NCBI GenBank assembly: GCA_031490075.1
Contig: GCA_031490075.1_4354.1
Strand: one strand, 5' to 3'
Source of the DNA: a phage
DNA: 44,632 bases
Positions 3,360-39,420 of the stretch are shown piece after piece (position 1 is the stretch's first letter; every line of letters starts with the position of its first letter). Below the pieces are notes generated by a model. That model was not told the DNA's origin and searched no databases. It was given only the letters and a program-made list of their open reading frames with translations. The position numbers and the translations under genes are program-made.

Positions 3360-3384
3360 TCCTCTGTCTCGTTCCGATAAGTGA

Positions 3385-3413
3385 ATAGTATCCTATTATG
3401 TTGGGGTGTGCAA
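3385..3413 (-). promoter_or_regulatory. Sigma70-like promoter with embedded palindrome (TTGCAC-N17-TACTAT on minus strand)
   Basis: Read on the minus strand: TTGCAC, 17-bp spacer, TACTAT; AATAG-N4-CTATT at 3384-3397. The flanking sequence is closely similar to the promoter at 2286-2314. Confidence 0.6.
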
Positions 3414-26884: not shown

Positions 26885-26913
26885 TTGCACACCCCAATAT
26901 AATAGGGTACTAT
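26885..26913 (+). promoter_or_regulatory. Sigma70-like promoter with embedded palindrome (TTGCAC-N17-TACTAT)
   Basis: TTGCAC, 17-bp spacer, TACTAT; AATAG-N4-CTATT at 26901-26914; GGAGGGG SD follows. Confidence 0.65.
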
Positions 26914-26943
26914 TCACTTACACCAACAATGGAGGGGTTTAAA

Positions 26944-27135
26944 ATGTCCAGTTTACCAGTTTCCTTAATTCTGTTTGCACTGCTCGCTTATTTCGCGCCT
27001 TTCCTGGTTGCGTATTTCCGTAACCATAAAGCGAAATTAGCGATATTCATGGCTAATCTGTTTCTTGGATGGGTTCTGCTGCCGTGGGTATTTATTTTAA
27101 TCTGGGCTTGCAACTCGAATGTCAAAGAGAAGTGA
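26944..27135 (+). CDS. Small membrane protein (two predicted helices)
   Basis: 63 aa, mostly hydrophobic; start placed at ATG 26944 downstream of the promoter (the longest ORF from 26845 would include the promoter). Confidence 0.5.
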   Translation: MSSLPVSLILFALLAYFAPFLVAYFRNHKAKLAIFMANLFLGWVLLPWVFILIWACNSNVKEK

Positions 27136-27172: not shown

Positions 27173-28303
27173 ATGGCCCGGAAGAAAATAACCGACGAAC
27201 AGTTGCAGGAAGAATTGAACGCCGGTATGAAGAATGTAGATATCGCCCGTAAATACGGCATCTCAGACCGCGTAATTCGTATCCGTAAAGCGAAGCTGGC
27301 TAAGAAAGGCGTGGGCCACGGGCGCGACGTTAGCCACCTTGTGCCAGACGGCTACAAGATTAAAGGAACGTCGTCACTTGTGGACGAGTTCGGCAACACT
27401 AAGTTGCAATGGGTTAAGACTGATACCGACGCCGAACGTCAGGTTGAATTGATGAAAGCCGTAATAGAGGGCATGAAGTCAGAGATTACGCCCGTTGCGC
27501 CTGTTAAAGCGGCGCGCGCCAAACGTGACGACAAGCTACTCAATCTTTACACTGTATCTGATTTCCATCTCGGTATGCTGGCATGGGCCGATGAGAGCGG
27601 CGACGACTGGGACATGAAGATTGCAGAAGACCTGTTCTCTCGGTGGTTCGACGCGGCGTTTCAGAAAGCACCGGATGCAGGAACAGGAGTTATTAACCTG
27701 CTTGGGGACTTCGCACACTTCGATAGTCTTGATGCCGTTACCCCCGAGTAGCGCCATGTATTAGATGCGGATACTCGCTATCAGAAACTGGTACGTTACA
27801 TGATTCGTATGGTCCGCCGTGTTGTTGATATGGCGCTGGTTAAGCATCACACAGTAAAACTTTTAATCGTTCAAGGTAACCACGACCCTGTTGGCTCCGT
27901 ATGGCTTGCTGAAATGTTCACGGTTTTATACTCAAACGACAGCCGAGTGATTGTTGATACGTCGCCGGATGTTTACAAGATGGTGCAACACGGCAAAACG
28001 ACGCTGTTCTTCCATCACGGGCATAAAGCACGATTCGACGCTATCGAACCGGTTATGATTGCCAAGTTCCGTAAAGCGTTCGGCGAGAGTGTTTACAGCT
28101 ACGCCCACGTAGGCCATCTGCACCACCAGAAGATTGTAGAAAGCCGTAACATGATTGTTGAGCAACACCGCACCTTAGCGGCTAAAGACGCCTACGCCTC
28201 TCGCGGCGGATGGATGTCGGGCCGCAGTGCAAATGTAATTACTTATAGCGCCGAATATGGCGAGGTCGCACGTTTAACTATTTCACCGGAGATGCTGGGA
28301 TGA
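27173..28303 (+). CDS. Calcineurin-like metallophosphoesterase with N-terminal HTH-like region, interrupted by an in-frame TAG at 27749-27751
   Basis: Track ORFs 27173..27751 and 27800..28303 are in the same frame with a single TAG between them. Motifs SDFHLG and LLGDFAHFD lie upstream of the stop; QGNHD, HHGH and GHLHH lie downstream. Confidence 0.65.
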
Positions 28304-35685: not shown

Positions 35686-35949
35686 CTATTCCAGAATATT
35701 CCTCACGTAATCCTGCAACATGAACACTTTCAGCCGCAGCTGCCGTACGCATTCAGCATTCTGAACGTCGACGGCCAAATCCTCATCAGCGTCGCTACTT
35801 GGCTGCGCCAGTTTGCACGGCGGCTGCATCATCGTCGTATCCGGGGATGGAATTGGCGTTGGCGACGGCGCGGGACTTGAGCTGCACGCGCTCAGGGTCA
35901 AAAGTGCACACGCTGCGACCAGGCGTTTTAATGTACTTAACGACTTCAC
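35686..35949 (-). CDS. Outer-membrane spanin component (Rz1-like lipoprotein)
   Basis: Signal peptide ending in the lipobox LSAC, then a Pro-rich segment; starts inside the Rz-like gene in a different frame. Confidence 0.5.
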   Translation of the reverse strand: MKSLSTLKRLVAACALLTLSACSSSPAPSPTPIPSPDTTMMQPPCKLAQPSSDADEDLAVDVQNAECVRQLRLKVFMLQDYVRNILE

Positions 35950-36181
35950 GGGTAATCACCTCTGATTTCGTCTTGCCTTCGTTGTCAGCGGCGGCGGCCT
36001 TCGATTCATCCTGCTGCTGCCGTTGTGTTTTCTTCGCTAACTCAGCCTGTGCTTTCTGCTGTTGCTGCGAAACGAGATTAGCCCGGCCTTCGTTCCATCC
36101 GCTGCGATACTGGTAGATGCCGTGTGCGTAAACCAGGATGATGAAACATGCTCCTGCTACGACAGTTGCTTTAAGATTCAT
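35795..36181 (-). CDS. Inner-membrane spanin component (Rz-like)
   Basis: N-terminal transmembrane helix followed by a Gln/Ala/Lys-rich coiled coil; contains the lipoprotein ORF. Confidence 0.55.
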   Translation of the reverse strand: MNLKATVVAGACFIILVYAHGIYQYRSGWNEGRANLVSQQQQKAQAELAKKTQRQQQDESKAAAADNEGKTKSEVITREVVKYIKTPGRSVCTFDPERVQLKSRAVANANSIPGYDDDAAAVQTGAAK

Positions 36182-36291
36182 GTTTCCCCTTTCTCGATAA
36201 GTAAAGCCCCGCCATAAAGCGGGGCGCTAGTCCTTATCATTTAAACATAGAAACGGCGTAATCTCAGTAAACCAGTTACTTTTTACACAAG

Positions 36292-36434
36292 CAATAGAGT
36301 ATGGCCCTTCCGAACGCGTCAGCGTAACTACACTCAGGACTTACGTCCCGCTCCGTTACCTGCCCGCGCCGCGGTCGCTTGTTCATACTTCACAAGCTCA
36401 GGTGGAGCTTATCATATTTTTAGTGAAAAGTCAA
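36292..36434 (+). repeat. Copy 2 of the ~145-bp imperfect direct repeat (partner at 3578..3722)
   Basis: Same conserved blocks in the same order as copy 1. Confidence 0.7.
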
Positions 36435-36500
36435 CTATTCGAATAGTTTATTCCAACATTTACAATTTAGTGGAATAACTGGAATACATAAACAAATAGT

Positions 36501-36529
36501 TTGCGCACCCCGATATAATAGGGTACTAT
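36501..36529 (+). promoter_or_regulatory. Sigma70-like promoter with embedded palindrome (TTGCGC-N17-TACTAT)
   Basis: TTGCGC, 17-bp spacer, TACTAT; AATAG-N4-CTATT at 36517-36530; GAGGAGG SD follows. Confidence 0.65.
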
Positions 36530-36556
36530 TCATTCTATCGAACCGAGGAGGCCGCC

Positions 36557-36637
36557 ATGTTAGTCGTTATTTCAGTAGTAATTGCAGTTGATGCGGTGAT
36601 GTTTCTTTGGGCTTGTAGTGGTATTGGTGAACTATGA
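36557..36637 (+). CDS. Small hydrophobic peptide (26 aa)
   Basis: Strong SD; stop overlaps the lipoprotein start. Confidence 0.3.
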   Translation: MLVVISVVIAVDAVMFLWACSGIGEL

Positions 36638-36978
36638 AATATATTAAATTAGCAGTAGCGGGTGTTGTAGCCGTCTGTTTGAGTGGTTGCGTAAGGTCGT
36701 TGCCAGACCCAGCTTTACAGGTTTATCAGGCAGGGGATACAACGGCAACATGTAATCAGTTACTATCGAGAATCGCCACGACAAAACAAGCTCAAGCCAA
36801 CGCTACGCACCGTGTTAATAAGCAAATAGGTACTAACGTTGTACTCGGTGTTACAGGCGCATTCCTGATTGTTCCGCTGTTCTTTATGGACACGGGCGCC
36901 GGGCCTTCTATGGACGAGATGACAGCCGGTAATCGTCTGTCGCAGTTACAACAAACATACGACGAGAAATGCAAATGA
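36634..36978 (+). CDS. Lipoprotein with additional hydrophobic segment
   Basis: Signal peptide with lipobox LSGC; later hydrophobic stretch VVLGVTGAFLIVPLFF; plus strand inside the minus-strand head module. Confidence 0.65.
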   Translation: MKYIKLAVAGVVAVCLSGCVRSLPDPALQVYQAGDTTATCNQLLSRIATTKQAQANATHRVNKQIGTNVVLGVTGAFLIVPLFFMDTGAGPSMDEMTAGNRLSQLQQTYDEKCK

Positions 36979-37051
36979 CAAATAGTGTGATGTTTTATGT
37001 TGTTTTGTTGGTATCGGCTGCGGTTATCACCGCGATGTTCATACAAAAATA

Positions 37052-37073
37052 AAGCCCCGTAAGGGGCTTTTTA
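37052..37073 (+). terminator. Rho-independent terminator
   Basis: AGCCCC-GTAA-GGGGCT followed by TTTTT. Confidence 0.6.
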
Positions 37074-37096
37074 TCATTCCGGCTTTTTATCATTCC
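37065..37096. repeat. Tandem duplication of a 16-bp unit (GGCTTTTTATCATTCC x2)
   Basis: Two identical adjacent copies; the first overlaps the terminator stem and the second reaches the stop codon region of the minus gene 37090..37551. Confidence 0.7.
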
Positions 37097-37551
37097 GGCT
37101 TAGTAACCTTCGCCGCTTTACTGACGGCCTCTACCCCATCGGCATCAGTAACTTTAACGAAGCATTCGCTGACCGCATTAACCGTCAGAGACAGAGCCTC
37201 CTCAGGCACATTCACCACTTCCTTACCGTCTTTGTACCAGGTCAGAGAATACGGCGCTTTGCCTGCCTTAACCTCGACAGTGATGGTTGCGCTGCCGCCC
37301 GCCAGTTCAGCGTCCTGCGGTTGCGCAGAGAAATACACGTCGCCAGCGTCCGCCAGATACGGAATTTCATAAAGCATACCGGCGGCGGGCAACGCAATAC
37401 CGGTTTTATCTGCAAACGGCATATCATCTACCGGTGTACCGAGTACACTTTCGTCCCCAATAAATACCACGTTCTCGCCAGAGCCAGACACGCGGGCGTA
37501 CTGGACTACGCGACGAGACGGTACGTCAGTTACTTTGAAAAAGCCCATCAT
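37090..37551 (-). CDS. Hypothetical protein with C-terminal Ig-like region
   Basis: APYSLTWYKDGKEV resembles Ig-like repeats; downstream of the head morphogenesis gene. Confidence 0.45.
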   Translation of the reverse strand: MMGFFKVTDVPSRRVVQYARVSGSGENVVFIGDESVLGTPVDDMPFADKTGIALPAAGMLYEIPYLADAGDVYFSAQPQDAELAGGSATITVEVKAGKAPYSLTWYKDGKEVVNVPEEALSLTVNAVSECFVKVTDADGVEAVSKAAKVTKPE

Positions 37552-38594: not shown

Positions 38595-38675
38595 ATACCC
38601 TCCTGTTTCGATATGACAATCATATCAGTCGGTAACGTATTGGCATAATCATACGCATTTAAGGTTAAAAAGAGC

Positions 38676-38708
38676 TTGATTAAATTCTACATTCAAATGT
38701 AGAATTTA
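38676..38708 (+). promoter_or_regulatory. Promoter with perfect 12-bp inverted repeat operator
   Basis: TTGATT, 18-bp spacer, TAGAAT; TAAATTCTACAT-TCAA-ATGTAGAATTTA (38681-38708) overlaps the spacer and -10. Confidence 0.55.
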
Positions 38709-38736
38709 AACGTACACTTAAACAGGAGAAATACAC

Positions 38737-39390
38737 ATGAAACTGCAAACATTAGAGTTCCCTTATGGAGAAATCACTTTTGACCGTGAAAACTTTATTA
38801 ACGTAAACGAGCTGGTTGACCAGATGAACCGTTGGCGTTTAGACAACGGCATGGGGGCCAGAGAGCTTCGCCAGGTCATGGCAACGGATGGCTTCAAGAT
38901 TTTCAAGGAGGAATGCGAAAAACAACTCGGAATCGAGAATGCCATAAGGGCGACGAAAGGCCGAAACGGTCGCACCTTTGCATGTCTCCATCTGGCAGTA
39001 TATATTGCTGAGCAATACAGCGCCTATTTCCATTTCCTCGTTATAGACCGCTTTATCACACAACGGCAGGTAGAACTACGAAACATTGGCGCGGTGAGCT
39101 TTGTCGAGCTTAACGCTGCCGTTAGTCGAATGATCGAGCGCACGGAGGGAAGAATTGGCCACAGTGGACACTTCATACAGGTGGCTAAAGCGGTAAAGGA
39201 ATCCGTAGATATCCGCGACGTAACGGGTTTCGATACATGGGACTCTCAGGATGCGAAGACCAATCAGTTGCGAAGTGACATCCAGAAAGCTCTGGTGACG
39301 CTTCTTGACATGGAGGCCGTTAATACATGGGGTGAACTGAAAGAGGCGATACCTCGGGTTGTGCGTAAATGTGCGGCTAATATACGTTAA
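38737..39390 (+). CDS. KilA-N domain protein
   Basis: N-terminal GEITFDRENFINVNELVDQMNRWRL resembles the KilA-N pattern (FDENGR...N...L...RFDNWLRL) of P1 KilA-type proteins; GGAG SD. Confidence 0.55.
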   Translation: MKLQTLEFPYGEITFDRENFINVNELVDQMNRWRLDNGMGARELRQVMATDGFKIFKEECEKQLGIENAIRATKGRNGRTFACLHLAVYIAEQYSAYFHFLVIDRFITQRQVELRNIGAVSFVELNAAVSRMIERTEGRIGHSGHFIQVAKAVKESVDIRDVTGFDTWDSQDAKTNQLRSDIQKALVTLLDMEAVNTWGELKEAIPRVVRKCAANIR

Positions 39391-39396
39391 AACTAA

Positions 39397-39420
39397 GGCC
39401 CCTAGCGGGGCCTTTCTATT
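39397..39420 (+). terminator. Rho-independent terminator
   Basis: GGCCCC-TAGC-GGGGCC followed by TTTCTATTT. Confidence 0.6.

Follow-up and report, generated by a model that had tools for sequence, protein, structure and literature searches.

Phages of the Guernseyvirinae keep a fixed slot for accessory genes between their head genes, in which a conserved promoter and a bidirectional terminator enclose exchangeable cargo. We describe this slot in the genome of a Kagunavirus, a lytic phage of E. coli (assembly GCA_031490075.1, contig GCA_031490075.1_4354.1); the whole stretch of 44,632 nucleotides is referred to as the window. Here the cargo is a mini-operon in which a lipoprotein, placed by its sequence in a large, unannotated family of Gram-negative lipoproteins, is flanked by two small hydrophobic open reading frames (ORFs). 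As to function, we favor exclusion after adsorption, at a probability of about 0.4: the cassette would block the entry of rival phage DNA into a cell to which the rival has already adsorbed, rather than mask a receptor.

Table 1. Features of the slot, its cargo, and the related promoter copies in the window.
Feature	Position	Strand	Details
Third copy of the promoter motif	3382-3413	-	Precedes a series of small genes like those of early regions
Second copy of the promoter motif	26885-26916	+	Precedes the 63-aa PF14373 Imm-like membrane protein
PF14373 "superinfection immunity" Imm-like membrane protein, 63 aa	26944-27135		Downstream of the second motif copy
Perfect 14-bp palindrome	36434-36447	.	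ACTATTCGAATAGT; between divergent promoters
Slot promoter motif	36501-36532	+	TTGCGCACCCCGATATAATAGGGTACTATTCA; TTGCGC-N17-TACTAT, internal TATAAT
ORF1, 26-aa hydrophobic peptide	36557-36637	+	MLVVISVVIAVDAVMFLWACSGIGEL; strong Shine-Dalgarno GAGGAGG
Lipoprotein precursor, 114 aa	36634-36978	+	phrog_13472
Signal peptide and lipobox L-S-G-C19	36634-36690	+	MKYIKLAVAGVVAVCLSG, then C
Most conserved family element, N68-D86	36835-36891	+	NVVLGVTGAFLIVPLFFMD; invariant alignment columns
ORF3, 25-aa transmembrane micropeptide	36975-37052	+	MTNSVMFYVVLLVSAAVITAMFIQK; 27 aa from an upstream ATG at 36969
Bidirectional intrinsic terminator hairpin	37051-37070	.	Ends the cassette and the convergent Hoc-like gene
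Exact 16-bp tandem duplication	37065-37096	.	GGCTTTTTATCATTCC, twice

The unit occupies the plus strand at 36501-37096, and its flanks, spanin and Hoc-like head-decoration genes, lie on the minus strand. A sequence-only reading of this DNA had presented it as an accessory insert in the head module, transcribed independently and on the opposite strand, and that picture stands. Every element it listed (promoter, 26-aa ORF, lipoprotein gene, terminator, and duplication) is found at the position it gave; the inventory was incomplete in that a third gene had been overlooked. The G+C content of the cassette is slightly low (0.40-0.50 vs 0.51-0.56). An Rfam scan of 36100-37200 returned nothing near any gathering score.

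Comparison with related phages separates the slot from its contents. Relatives retain the promoter and the terminator while the cargo differs, being a methyltransferase, an acidic 67-aa protein, other proteins, or nothing. Of 181 related records, 11 carry the cassette, and about 94% of relatives with this set of head genes lack it; the lipoprotein mini-operon is the cargo in the window phage and in nine other distinct relatives. The term moron, as defined for lambdoid phages, denotes a gene that has been inserted between conserved genes and has a promoter and a terminator of its own. The cassette fits this description, with the promoter and terminator being fixed parts of the slot, and it further resembles morons in its opposite strand, variable presence, and slightly low G+C. 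The slot differs in that its promoter and terminator stay put and only the transcribed cargo is swapped, and in that its host is a virulent phage. Whatever the lipoprotein does, the Guernseyvirinae slot should serve as a site for engineering and repay a search for conflict genes.

The slot promoter belongs to a recurring class. Its motif occurs three times in the window, and no shuffle contained 2 or more matches. A generic sigma-70 scan misses the copy at the slot because just 3 of the 6 positions in its -35 hexamer fit. In the annotation published for phage fBC-Eco01, this motif is marked repeatedly as a "phage promoter." In relatives, the motif is kept upstream of differing cargos. The promoter is thus a part of the resident slot and not of the cargo, and it is of the early-type class served by host RNA polymerase. 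One of the other copies lies upstream of the PF14373 Imm-like gene, which is followed by DNA-metabolism genes. The "shared palindrome" of the sequence-only reading proves to be only an imperfect inverted repeat (ACCC...GGGT around TATA), although it does lie inside the recurring motif. The perfect 14-bp palindrome nearby was considered as its source and rejected, since it has a single exact copy in the window; it is kept in all aligned relatives and is a possible operator. At the other end of the slot, the folded terminator region has an energy of -17.3 kcal/mol (z = -3.2).

The cargo genes are tightly coupled, with an ATGA overlap at both the ORF1-lipoprotein and the lipoprotein-ORF3 junctions; at the second, the start of ORF3 overlaps the lipoprotein stop. 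The 26-aa peptide reported earlier is present in the window but is not conserved among relatives: it has 33 residues in fBC-Eco01 and K-02, where a 21-nt in-frame indel accounts for the difference, and the divergent L106 cassette lacks it. ORF1 is an optional leader or accessory peptide. ORF3 is the overlooked gene. Between the window and L106, its frame has 9 synonymous and 7 non-synonymous codon changes, against 2-3 vs 14 in the other two frames, and in the lipoprotein frame as well synonymous changes outnumber replacements, unlike in the other frames. On this codon pattern, we take ORF3 to be under purifying selection, and its product is predicted to insert into the membrane. This conserved 25-aa gene is missing or mis-annotated in the deposited records examined. 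Scans of ORF1, the lipoprotein, and ORF3 against Pfam, NCBIfam, and PADLOC gave no significant match.

The identity of the central gene as a lipoprotein, proposed from its lipobox LSGC, is borne out. The precursor has a classic signal peptide of the kind cleaved by signal peptidase II, with n-region MKYIK, h-region LAVAGVVAVC, and lipobox L-S-G-C19; C19 is invariant across 123 homologues. The mature protein has Val at position +2 and, by the E. coli rule, would be sorted to the outer membrane. The protein matches phrog_13472 over residues 3-114 of 114 (E = 1.2e-44). A family profile (A1) retrieves 1464 representative clusters at E <= 1e-3, and recovers P0001, the 98%-identical cluster representative of the window protein, at E = 4.7e-40; the alignments A1 and A3 both include the window's lipoprotein among their sequences. 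Family members share the lipobox Cys, a Cys pair, and the motif NxxLGVTGAFLIVPLFFMD. We tested for a Cys at the start of helix 1, a C-terminal Cys, and N-x-x-L-G-x-x-G-x-F-x-x-V-P-x-F-F-M-D, and the window lipoprotein carries all of the invariants, as C19, C40, C113, and N68-D86. The family has no Pfam entry and is called hypothetical in every source, and a literature search found no study of it.

The conserved motif coincides with the later hydrophobic segment that had been noticed in this protein, a second hydrophobic stretch at residues 69-85. This stretch has a summed value of +2.4 kcal/mol over 19 residues, and topology prediction does not call it a membrane-spanning helix. Across the family, the net charge is +1.2 before it and -2.0 after it, which speaks against a membrane span of N-out/C-in topology. 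AlphaFold2, run with 21 and with 123 sequences, gave only a helix-loop-helix, each time with a pLDDT of about 59. In this low-confidence model, N68-D86 may form a hydrophobic tip between two helices stapled by C40 and C113. A Foldseek search of the PDB with the poor model returned only generic helical hairpins (E > 3), and a profile search of PDB sequences returned nothing.

Homologues of the lipoprotein reside in diverse genomic settings. In P22-like prophages, the homologue directly follows ejection gene 16 in all 11 places examined and precedes immI genes or the tailspike, the region that holds sieA in P22; P22-type SieA, tested as type A only, was found in none of these 11 places. In other prophages, homologues adjoin repressor/Cro genes, and in the strictly lytic T7-like Aeromonas phages they lie in early regions. 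One homologue is located on a conjugative element, after traH/traG and before a restriction-modification system, and another on a small resistance plasmid. Many are chromosomal and have no mobile-element neighbours, including those of obligate intracellular bacteria. Across 80 bacterial loci, the only conserved neighbours reflect lineage-specific synteny, in Rickettsiella-like genomes. The micropeptides are absent from the P22-like and chromosomal homologues. Since many members are chromosomal, without mobile-element or conserved neighbours, the ancestral role of the family was probably a cellular envelope function.

Superinfection exclusion had been put forward as a candidate function, and it remains a reasonable one on two grounds: the settings of the homologues in other mobile elements, and the promoter shared with the PF14373 protein. 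The slot itself is uninformative on this point, since it also holds cytoplasmic cargo (the methyltransferase and the acidic 67-aa protein), and gene position points to exclusion only weakly, as "guilt by position." In the mechanism that we propose, the cassette would be expressed early, from a promoter of the class used by the phage's Imm-like protein. The lipoprotein would be exported by Sec, lipidated at C19, and held in the periplasm, anchored to the outer membrane according to the +2 rule. There it would fold as a helical hairpin with a C40-C113 disulfide staple, and its invariant hydrophobic tip would contact the membrane or a partner protein, while the ORF3 micropeptide would reside in the inner membrane. 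The infected cell would be made refractory to further phage genomes, most likely after adsorption, through disturbance of a periplasmic or inner-membrane step of DNA delivery.

Known exclusion systems offer partial parallels. SieA of P22 acts at the inner membrane, where it blocks DNA delivery mediated by the ejection proteins (PMC10883804). The homologues occupy the same region of P22-like prophages, from gene 16 to tailspike gene 9, and the proposed point of action is the same, after adsorption and during DNA delivery. The proteins are nevertheless distinct: SieA has 3-4 membrane spans and a cytoplasmic FxRYPxEAxxFNK motif, whereas the lipoprotein has no true membrane span, lacks the features that define SieA, and matches it in BLASTP only at E = 6. 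Gene orientation at the locus is also opposite. A second parallel is the exclusion pair of T4, Imm at the membrane and Sp in the periplasm, envelope proteins expressed early by a strictly lytic phage; the Imm-like gene of the window shares the promoter motif of the cassette, and Sp has no similarity to the lipoprotein. Cooperation between the Imm-like locus and the lipoprotein cassette is our conjecture. Third, the exclusion genes traT and traS of the F plasmid lie downstream of traG, and one homologue, a single instance, lies directly after traH/traG. TraT is an outer-membrane lipoprotein; the window lipoprotein has no sequence similarity to TraT or TraS. If exclusion is the true function, the family would represent a receptor-independent exclusion factor of over a thousand sequence clusters, spread across Gram-negatives and their mobile elements. 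It would also bear on therapy cocktails composed of Kagunavirus phages, in which one phage might shut out another.

The lipoprotein may instead be a general factor of envelope physiology, for example one that stabilises or modulates a conserved envelope machine, with the mobile copies adjusting envelope integrity, lysis timing, or host fitness; phage copies may exploit an envelope function for something other than exclusion. Precedents would be Bor and TraT, lipoproteins through which mobile elements make their hosts resistant to serum. The broad chromosomal spread of the family, which reaches small intracellular genomes without conserved neighbours, fits such a role. So does the hydrophobic motif, identical in phage and cellular members, which suggests a conserved cellular partner and not a variable phage protein. 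The cassette also adjoins the spanin genes, the phage's own Rz/Rz1 pair, but this adjacency follows from the fixed slot, where relatives carry unrelated cargo. Long-term host fitness traits bring no gain to strictly lytic phages, and the repeated placing of homologues at the immunity/exclusion loci of temperate phages and after traG speaks for a conflict-related role. We consider a general envelope role somewhat unlikely.

A change in the surface glycan is an alternative that we rate as quite unlikely. The lipoprotein, the micropeptides, or both would inhibit a component of O-antigen or capsule assembly or export and so alter the glycan receptor. A precedent exists in Pseudomonas phage D3, whose 31-aa Iap peptide inhibits the O-antigen polymerase, and the cassette likewise contains short transmembrane peptides. 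Two groups of homologue carriers, Kagunavirus and P22-like phages, both recognise glycans via tailspikes, and in two prophages the homologue adjoins the tailspike and is followed by an ORF of 509-525 aa on the opposite strand. The proteins, however, have no homology to known glycan-modifying or inhibitory proteins, and glycan already on display would probably not be cleared within the short span of a lytic cycle. The distribution of the family also argues against glycan remodelling: the P22-like and chromosomal homologues are the ones that lack micropeptides, and T7-like Aeromonas phages and a conjugative element carry homologues as well.

The sequence-only reading had likened the gene to Cor and Llp, and this part is not supported. 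In that model, the lipoprotein would attach from the periplasmic side to the outer-membrane protein that serves the phage as receptor, and neither this phage nor its relatives could then adsorb. It shares a good deal with Llp of T5, Cor of T1 and phi80, and Rtp45, lipoproteins of lytic or temperate enterobacterial siphoviruses: all are small, exported to the periplasm, dispensable, and expressed apart from the late operons, and the combination of small size, a signal for outer-membrane sorting, and a lytic siphovirus as carrier recalls Llp and Rtp45 in particular. The mature window lipoprotein is larger (96 aa vs about 60 aa) and is predicted to be a helical hairpin with an invariant tip; it has no sequence or profile similarity to these proteins, and its family is mostly bacterial. 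A weak PHROG match to Cor (E = 0.29) spans only residues 1-37, the signal peptide, and is not significant; beyond it, Pfam, PHROGs, NCBIfam, and PADLOC gave no match to Llp or any other known exclusion family. The gene lies in the head module, away from the receptor-binding protein. Cassette and tailspike type assort independently among relatives, such that an identical lipoprotein occurs with different tailspikes and the window's tailspike occurs with other slot cargo. Kagunaviruses are reported to depend on O-antigen or capsule, surface glycans and not an outer-membrane protein, and to have no tailspikes other than those that target glycans (PMC11990801). Lastly, homologues on conjugative elements and chromosomes have no phage receptor logic. 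Blocking of the phage's own receptor thus finds neither profile homology, nor coupling to the tailspike, nor a reported protein receptor, and we regard it as very unlikely.

That the lipoprotein is a structural component of the virion is scarcely credible: the gene lies among head genes and its homologue in HSE2, gp35, is annotated "putative structural protein" in one GenBank record, but that label is annotation only, with proteomics absent from the HSE2 paper, and the gene has a lipoprotein signal peptide, the opposite strand, its own early-type promoter, and no counterpart in about 94% of relatives with the same head genes. A lysis or spanin-related role for the cassette was rejected because the slot holds unrelated cargo in relatives. 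A unimolecular spanin of the T1 gp11 type was rejected as well, since the hydrophobic stretch lies inside the protein, ahead of a conserved helix and Cys, and is not a predicted membrane span, and since the phage already has an Rz/Rz1 pair.

Exclusion after adsorption also admits a broader form, to which we give a low probability. The family would then be a widespread new envelope barrier to incoming DNA, in which the invariant hydrophobic tip of the stapled hairpin jams the periplasmic or inner-membrane DNA-delivery conduit built by phages and, perhaps, by conjugative systems. Capture from a cellular ancestor would have happened separately in virulent phages, prophages, conjugative elements, and plasmids, and in Kagunavirus the 25-aa inner-membrane micropeptide would serve the lipoprotein as a dedicated partner.

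The right edge of the slot carries a trace of its own. The 16-bp tandem duplication takes in the T-tract and the 3' half of the terminator stem, and the Hoc-like gene ends within it, with its stop codon in the second copy. It may be a scar of slippage or recombination, and it is polymorphic: the window and K-02 have it, and fBC-Eco01, Bas70, and L106 are without it.

Accessory envelope lipoproteins are already known in phages as candidate exclusion factors, and the cassette is of this kind. New are the following features: its lipoprotein belongs to a large, previously unstudied family that is absent from Pfam; members of this family recur at a consistent group of loci in several mobile-element classes; and in the Kagunavirus cassette the lipoprotein is accompanied by a conserved micropeptide, within a slot whose promoter and terminator are fixed.

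All elements that the sequence-only reading listed for the unit exist in the sequence. Its two-gene description is incomplete: a third ORF, the transmembrane micropeptide gene ORF3, was overlooked. Its shared palindrome stands, at best, as an imperfect ACCC...GGGT inverted repeat within the promoter motif; the perfect palindrome is not shared, occurring once in the window. The motif is readable as TTGCRC-N17-TACTAT, with TATAAT embedded. Shuffled sequence never reached even two matches, and the record of the related phage fBC-Eco01, independently, marks this motif as a recurring phage promoter; a generic promoter scan misses it because the -35 hexamer fits at only 3 of 6 positions. The terminator region folds at -17.3 kcal/mol (z = -3.2). 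The stop codon of the Hoc-like gene sits within the second copy of the 16-bp duplication, which is polymorphic among relatives.

Features of the lipoprotein cassette and other regions of the window
Feature	Position	Strand	Remarks
Promoter motif, TTGCRCACCCCRAYATAATAGGRTACTATTCA	36501-36532	+	32 nt
Promoter motif, second copy	26885-26916	+	upstream of PF14373 gene
Promoter motif, third copy	3382-3413	-
ORF1 (26 aa)	36557-36637	+	GAGGAGG ribosome-binding site upstream
Lipoprotein (114 aa)	36634-36978	+	textbook lipoprotein signal at start, MKYIKLAVAGVVAVCLSG before the C
ORF3	36975 (or upstream ATG 36969) to 37052	+	encodes MTNSVMFYVVLLVSAAVITAMFIQK
Terminator	37051-37070	both	G+C-rich hairpin, then T residues
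16-bp tandem duplication, GGCTTTTTATCATTCC	37065-37080 and 37081-37096		exact repeat
Rz/Rz1 spanin pair	35686-36181	-	phrog_2536 and phrog_5672; one flank of unit
Hoc-like head-decoration gene	37090-37551	-	phrog_3945; other flank of unit
63-aa PF14373 (Imm_superinfect) protein	26944-27135	+	two-helix membrane protein
Divergent-promoter region	36201-36532
36-aa ORF	36276-36386	-	within divergent-promoter region
Perfect palindrome, ACTATTCGAATAGT	36434-36447		single occurrence
ORF, N-terminal half of phrog_704	27173-27751	+	profile positions 2-205
ORF, C-terminal half of phrog_704	27800-28303	+	profile positions 224-389
Second variable slot	38595-39420	+	between head-morphogenesis and portal genes

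The 1.2 kb around the unit match 181 phage records at 90-99% identity, nearly all from Kagunavirus and Jerseyvirus (Guernseyvirinae) siphoviruses of E. coli and Salmonella. Beyond the immediate flanks lie scaffold and major capsid genes on one side and head-morphogenesis and portal genes on the other. Alignment with relatives shows conservation through the final base of the promoter motif and again from the terminator onward; the interior can differ. The unit is not a self-contained insert: promoter and terminator are conserved parts of a slot with exchangeable cargo. The lipoprotein cassette fills it in 11 records (nine distinct phages). Other cargos are an acidic 67-aa protein without a signal peptide (Bas70 group), a 179-aa protein (VSt10), a 173-aa "sliding-clamp-like" protein (fFiEco02), and an adenine methyltransferase (Jerseyvirus S103); K1ind1 carries almost nothing. 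The other two motif copies drive small genes of the early-region kind and the 63-aa PF14373 protein (E = 7.5e-13; 48.6 bits, gathering cut-off 27.9), which also matches phrog_1039 "immunity to superinfection" and is followed by exonuclease, polynucleotide kinase, and dNMP kinase genes. Given this company, the cassette is likely expressed early, by the host polymerase.

Both junctions, ORF1/lipoprotein and lipoprotein/ORF3, are ATGA stop-start overlaps, as is usual for translationally coupled genes. A divergent cassette, whose lipoprotein is 82% identical in protein sequence, is present on L106, a metagenomic Kagunavirus-like contig. There, ORF3 reads MTNSLGFYAVLWVTAAVITGMFI and is conserved at just 69% nucleotide identity. 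Between the two, its own frame holds 9 synonymous-only and 7 replacement codon changes, and the other two frames 2-3 and 14; the lipoprotein has 42 and 22 in its own frame, and 6-10 and 59 in the others. Conservation with an in-frame excess of synonymous changes marks ORF3, by this codon pattern, as a real gene. By a simple hydrophobicity sum, its product is predicted to be membrane-inserted (-2.3 kcal/mol over 19 residues). ORF1 is missing from L106, in which a strong ribosome-binding site and then the lipoprotein come straight after the promoter, and a 21-nt in-frame indel makes it 33 aa in fBC-Eco01 and K-02; judged from these relatives, ORF1 is optional.

The lipoprotein matches phrog_13472 (function unknown) over its full length (E = 1.2e-44) and nothing in Pfam, NCBIfam, or PADLOC. 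The family profile finds 1464 clusters at E <= 1e-3 among 1.84 billion representative proteins, 713 of them at E <= 1e-10; a second database yields 1047 proteins, each labelled hypothetical or "lipoprotein." Alignments of 21 and of 123 members agree on the invariant positions: the lipobox cysteine, a cysteine opening the first helix, another two residues from the C-terminus, and the motif N-x-x-L-G-V-T-G-x-F-L-I-V-P-L/W-F-F-M-D. Sequence and fold searches of the PDB were both empty. A low-confidence AlphaFold2 model (pLDDT about 59) has long helices at 40-72 and 93-113, joined by the hydrophobic motif. The two non-lipobox cysteines lie at the base of this predicted hairpin, making a stapling disulfide plausible. 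At 17 residues, with a proline in the middle, the hydrophobic stretch is short. It scores +2.4 kcal/mol over 19 residues and across the family is preceded by net positive and followed by net negative charge, which argues against a membrane span with a cytoplasmic C-terminus. From this and the helix model, we infer that the lipoprotein probably lies entirely in the periplasm, as a lipid-anchored helical hairpin whose tip is hydrophobic. With Val at residue +2, it would be sorted to the outer membrane under the E. coli rule.

Homologues occupy a recurrent set of places. In P22-like prophages of Citrobacter, Kluyvera, and related enterobacteria, the gene lies about 70 bp past the ejection gene 16, with Arc/Mnt/antirepressor genes after it or the tailspike gene directly after it (all 11 places examined). 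The accessory region after gene 16 is where P22 carries sieA (PMC10883804). P22-type SieA was found at none of the 11 loci with a type A query, which types B and C might escape; P22 itself has no copy of the lipoprotein gene. The P22-like gene is solitary: it lacks micropeptides and has an AT-rich upstream region and a terminator of its own. In other prophages, the homologue adjoins repressor/Cro genes or the N antiterminator. Two prophages carry an unrelated ORF with an apparent lipoprotein signal peptide beside the family member (L111, 4322-4795, minus strand, 157 aa; L114, 1869-2306, plus strand, 145 aa), a hint that envelope lipoproteins cluster at lysogenic-conversion loci. In Aeromonas T7-like phages, the homologue is in the early region, and an identical Citrobacter protein is present on a small TEM/Tn3 plasmid. 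In a Seleniivibrio conjugative element, it follows traH and traG, the exclusion-gene position in F-like plasmids, and precedes a helicase/methyltransferase restriction system. This element is integrated in the S. woodruffii chromosome (L015, 933-12405); the restriction-type system comprises an SNF2 helicase, DUF4391, and an N6/N4-methyltransferase.

We tentatively favor, at a probability of about 0.4, a role in which the lipoprotein would block superinfecting phage after adsorption, with an outcome comparable to that of SieA, T4 Imm/Sp, and Ltp of phage TP-J34. Exclusion is supported mainly by three things: the gene has been captured repeatedly at the classical sites of prophage-expressed exclusion genes, it has also been captured at early loci in lytic phages, and the cassette is co-regulated with the Imm-like gene. 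A block after adsorption fits better than the Cor/Llp-type masking of the phage's own receptor proposed earlier because that model fails three tests.

The main rival, which we consider rather unlikely, is a cellular envelope function that mobile elements exploit for another purpose. Many members are chromosomal, in Proteobacteria (Rickettsiella, Legionellales, and Wolbachia among the chromosomal carriers), Deferribacterota, Nitrospinota, Planctomycetota, and Omnitrophota, with no conserved neighbor past lineage-specific synteny; Rhizobium megaplasmids also hold members. The most conserved element is identical in cellular and phage members, and so a conserved cellular partner fits better than a variable phage target. 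Less likely than either of these readings are the rest, beginning with glycan remodelling by the cassette, which is improbable.

Receptor masking is highly doubtful. No homology to Cor/Llp proteins was found in Pfam, PHROGs, NCBIfam, or PADLOC, and the cassette shows no linkage to a receptor-binding protein. The window's 778-aa tailspike recurs over its full length in 11 records (eight distinct phages), none with the cassette; fFiEco02, the sole slot read among them, carries a different cargo. Conversely, the lipoprotein is 99-100% identical in protein sequence among the nine cassette-bearing phages, and in the six of them recovered by the tailspike search, the only shared part of the tailspike is its N-terminal anchor. 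Kagunaviruses are reported to depend on O-antigen or capsule, with tailspikes that target glycans only (PMC11990801), and known exclusion lipoproteins act on a protein receptor from its periplasmic side (PMC12685063). A structural role in the virion is barely credible; no proteomics underlie the "putative structural protein" label in HSE2.

Other observations concern the surrounding genome. The divergent-promoter region, which holds the 36-aa ORF and the unique palindrome, keeps 94-98% identity in records from both E. coli Kagunavirus and Salmonella Jerseyvirus. Its matches spread wider over both genera than those of the adjoining Hoc-like gene, pointing to a possible conserved regulatory hub or RNA; Rfam gave no match. 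Rz1 is embedded in Rz, and the pair lies inside the head module, with no holin or endolysin gene seen in the stretch around it. The phrog_704 exonuclease gene (390 profile positions) is, as read from two adjacent ORFs, split or interrupted by a frameshift or small insert. The second opposite-strand slot encodes a 217-aa protein that weakly matches KilA-N (phrog_6095, labelled "amidase"). The slot's promoter region is its own and contains the palindrome ATTCTACATTCAAATGTAGAAT; a GGCCCC...GGGGCC hairpin comes after the stop codon. In relatives, this slot holds a "sliding clamp-like" gene (fBC-Eco01), a 94-aa ORF (K-02), or nothing (Bas70). The lipoprotein slot also occurs in "plasmid pC16EC0033-2" (CP088689.1; 44,086 bp, circular) from a clinical E. 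coli blood isolate. Across the 10 kb examined, its gene order (terminase, portal-like DUF4055 protein, minor capsid protein, Ig-domain protein) agrees with that of a Kagunavirus. The record probably represents a phage that accompanied the isolate or was assembled together with it.
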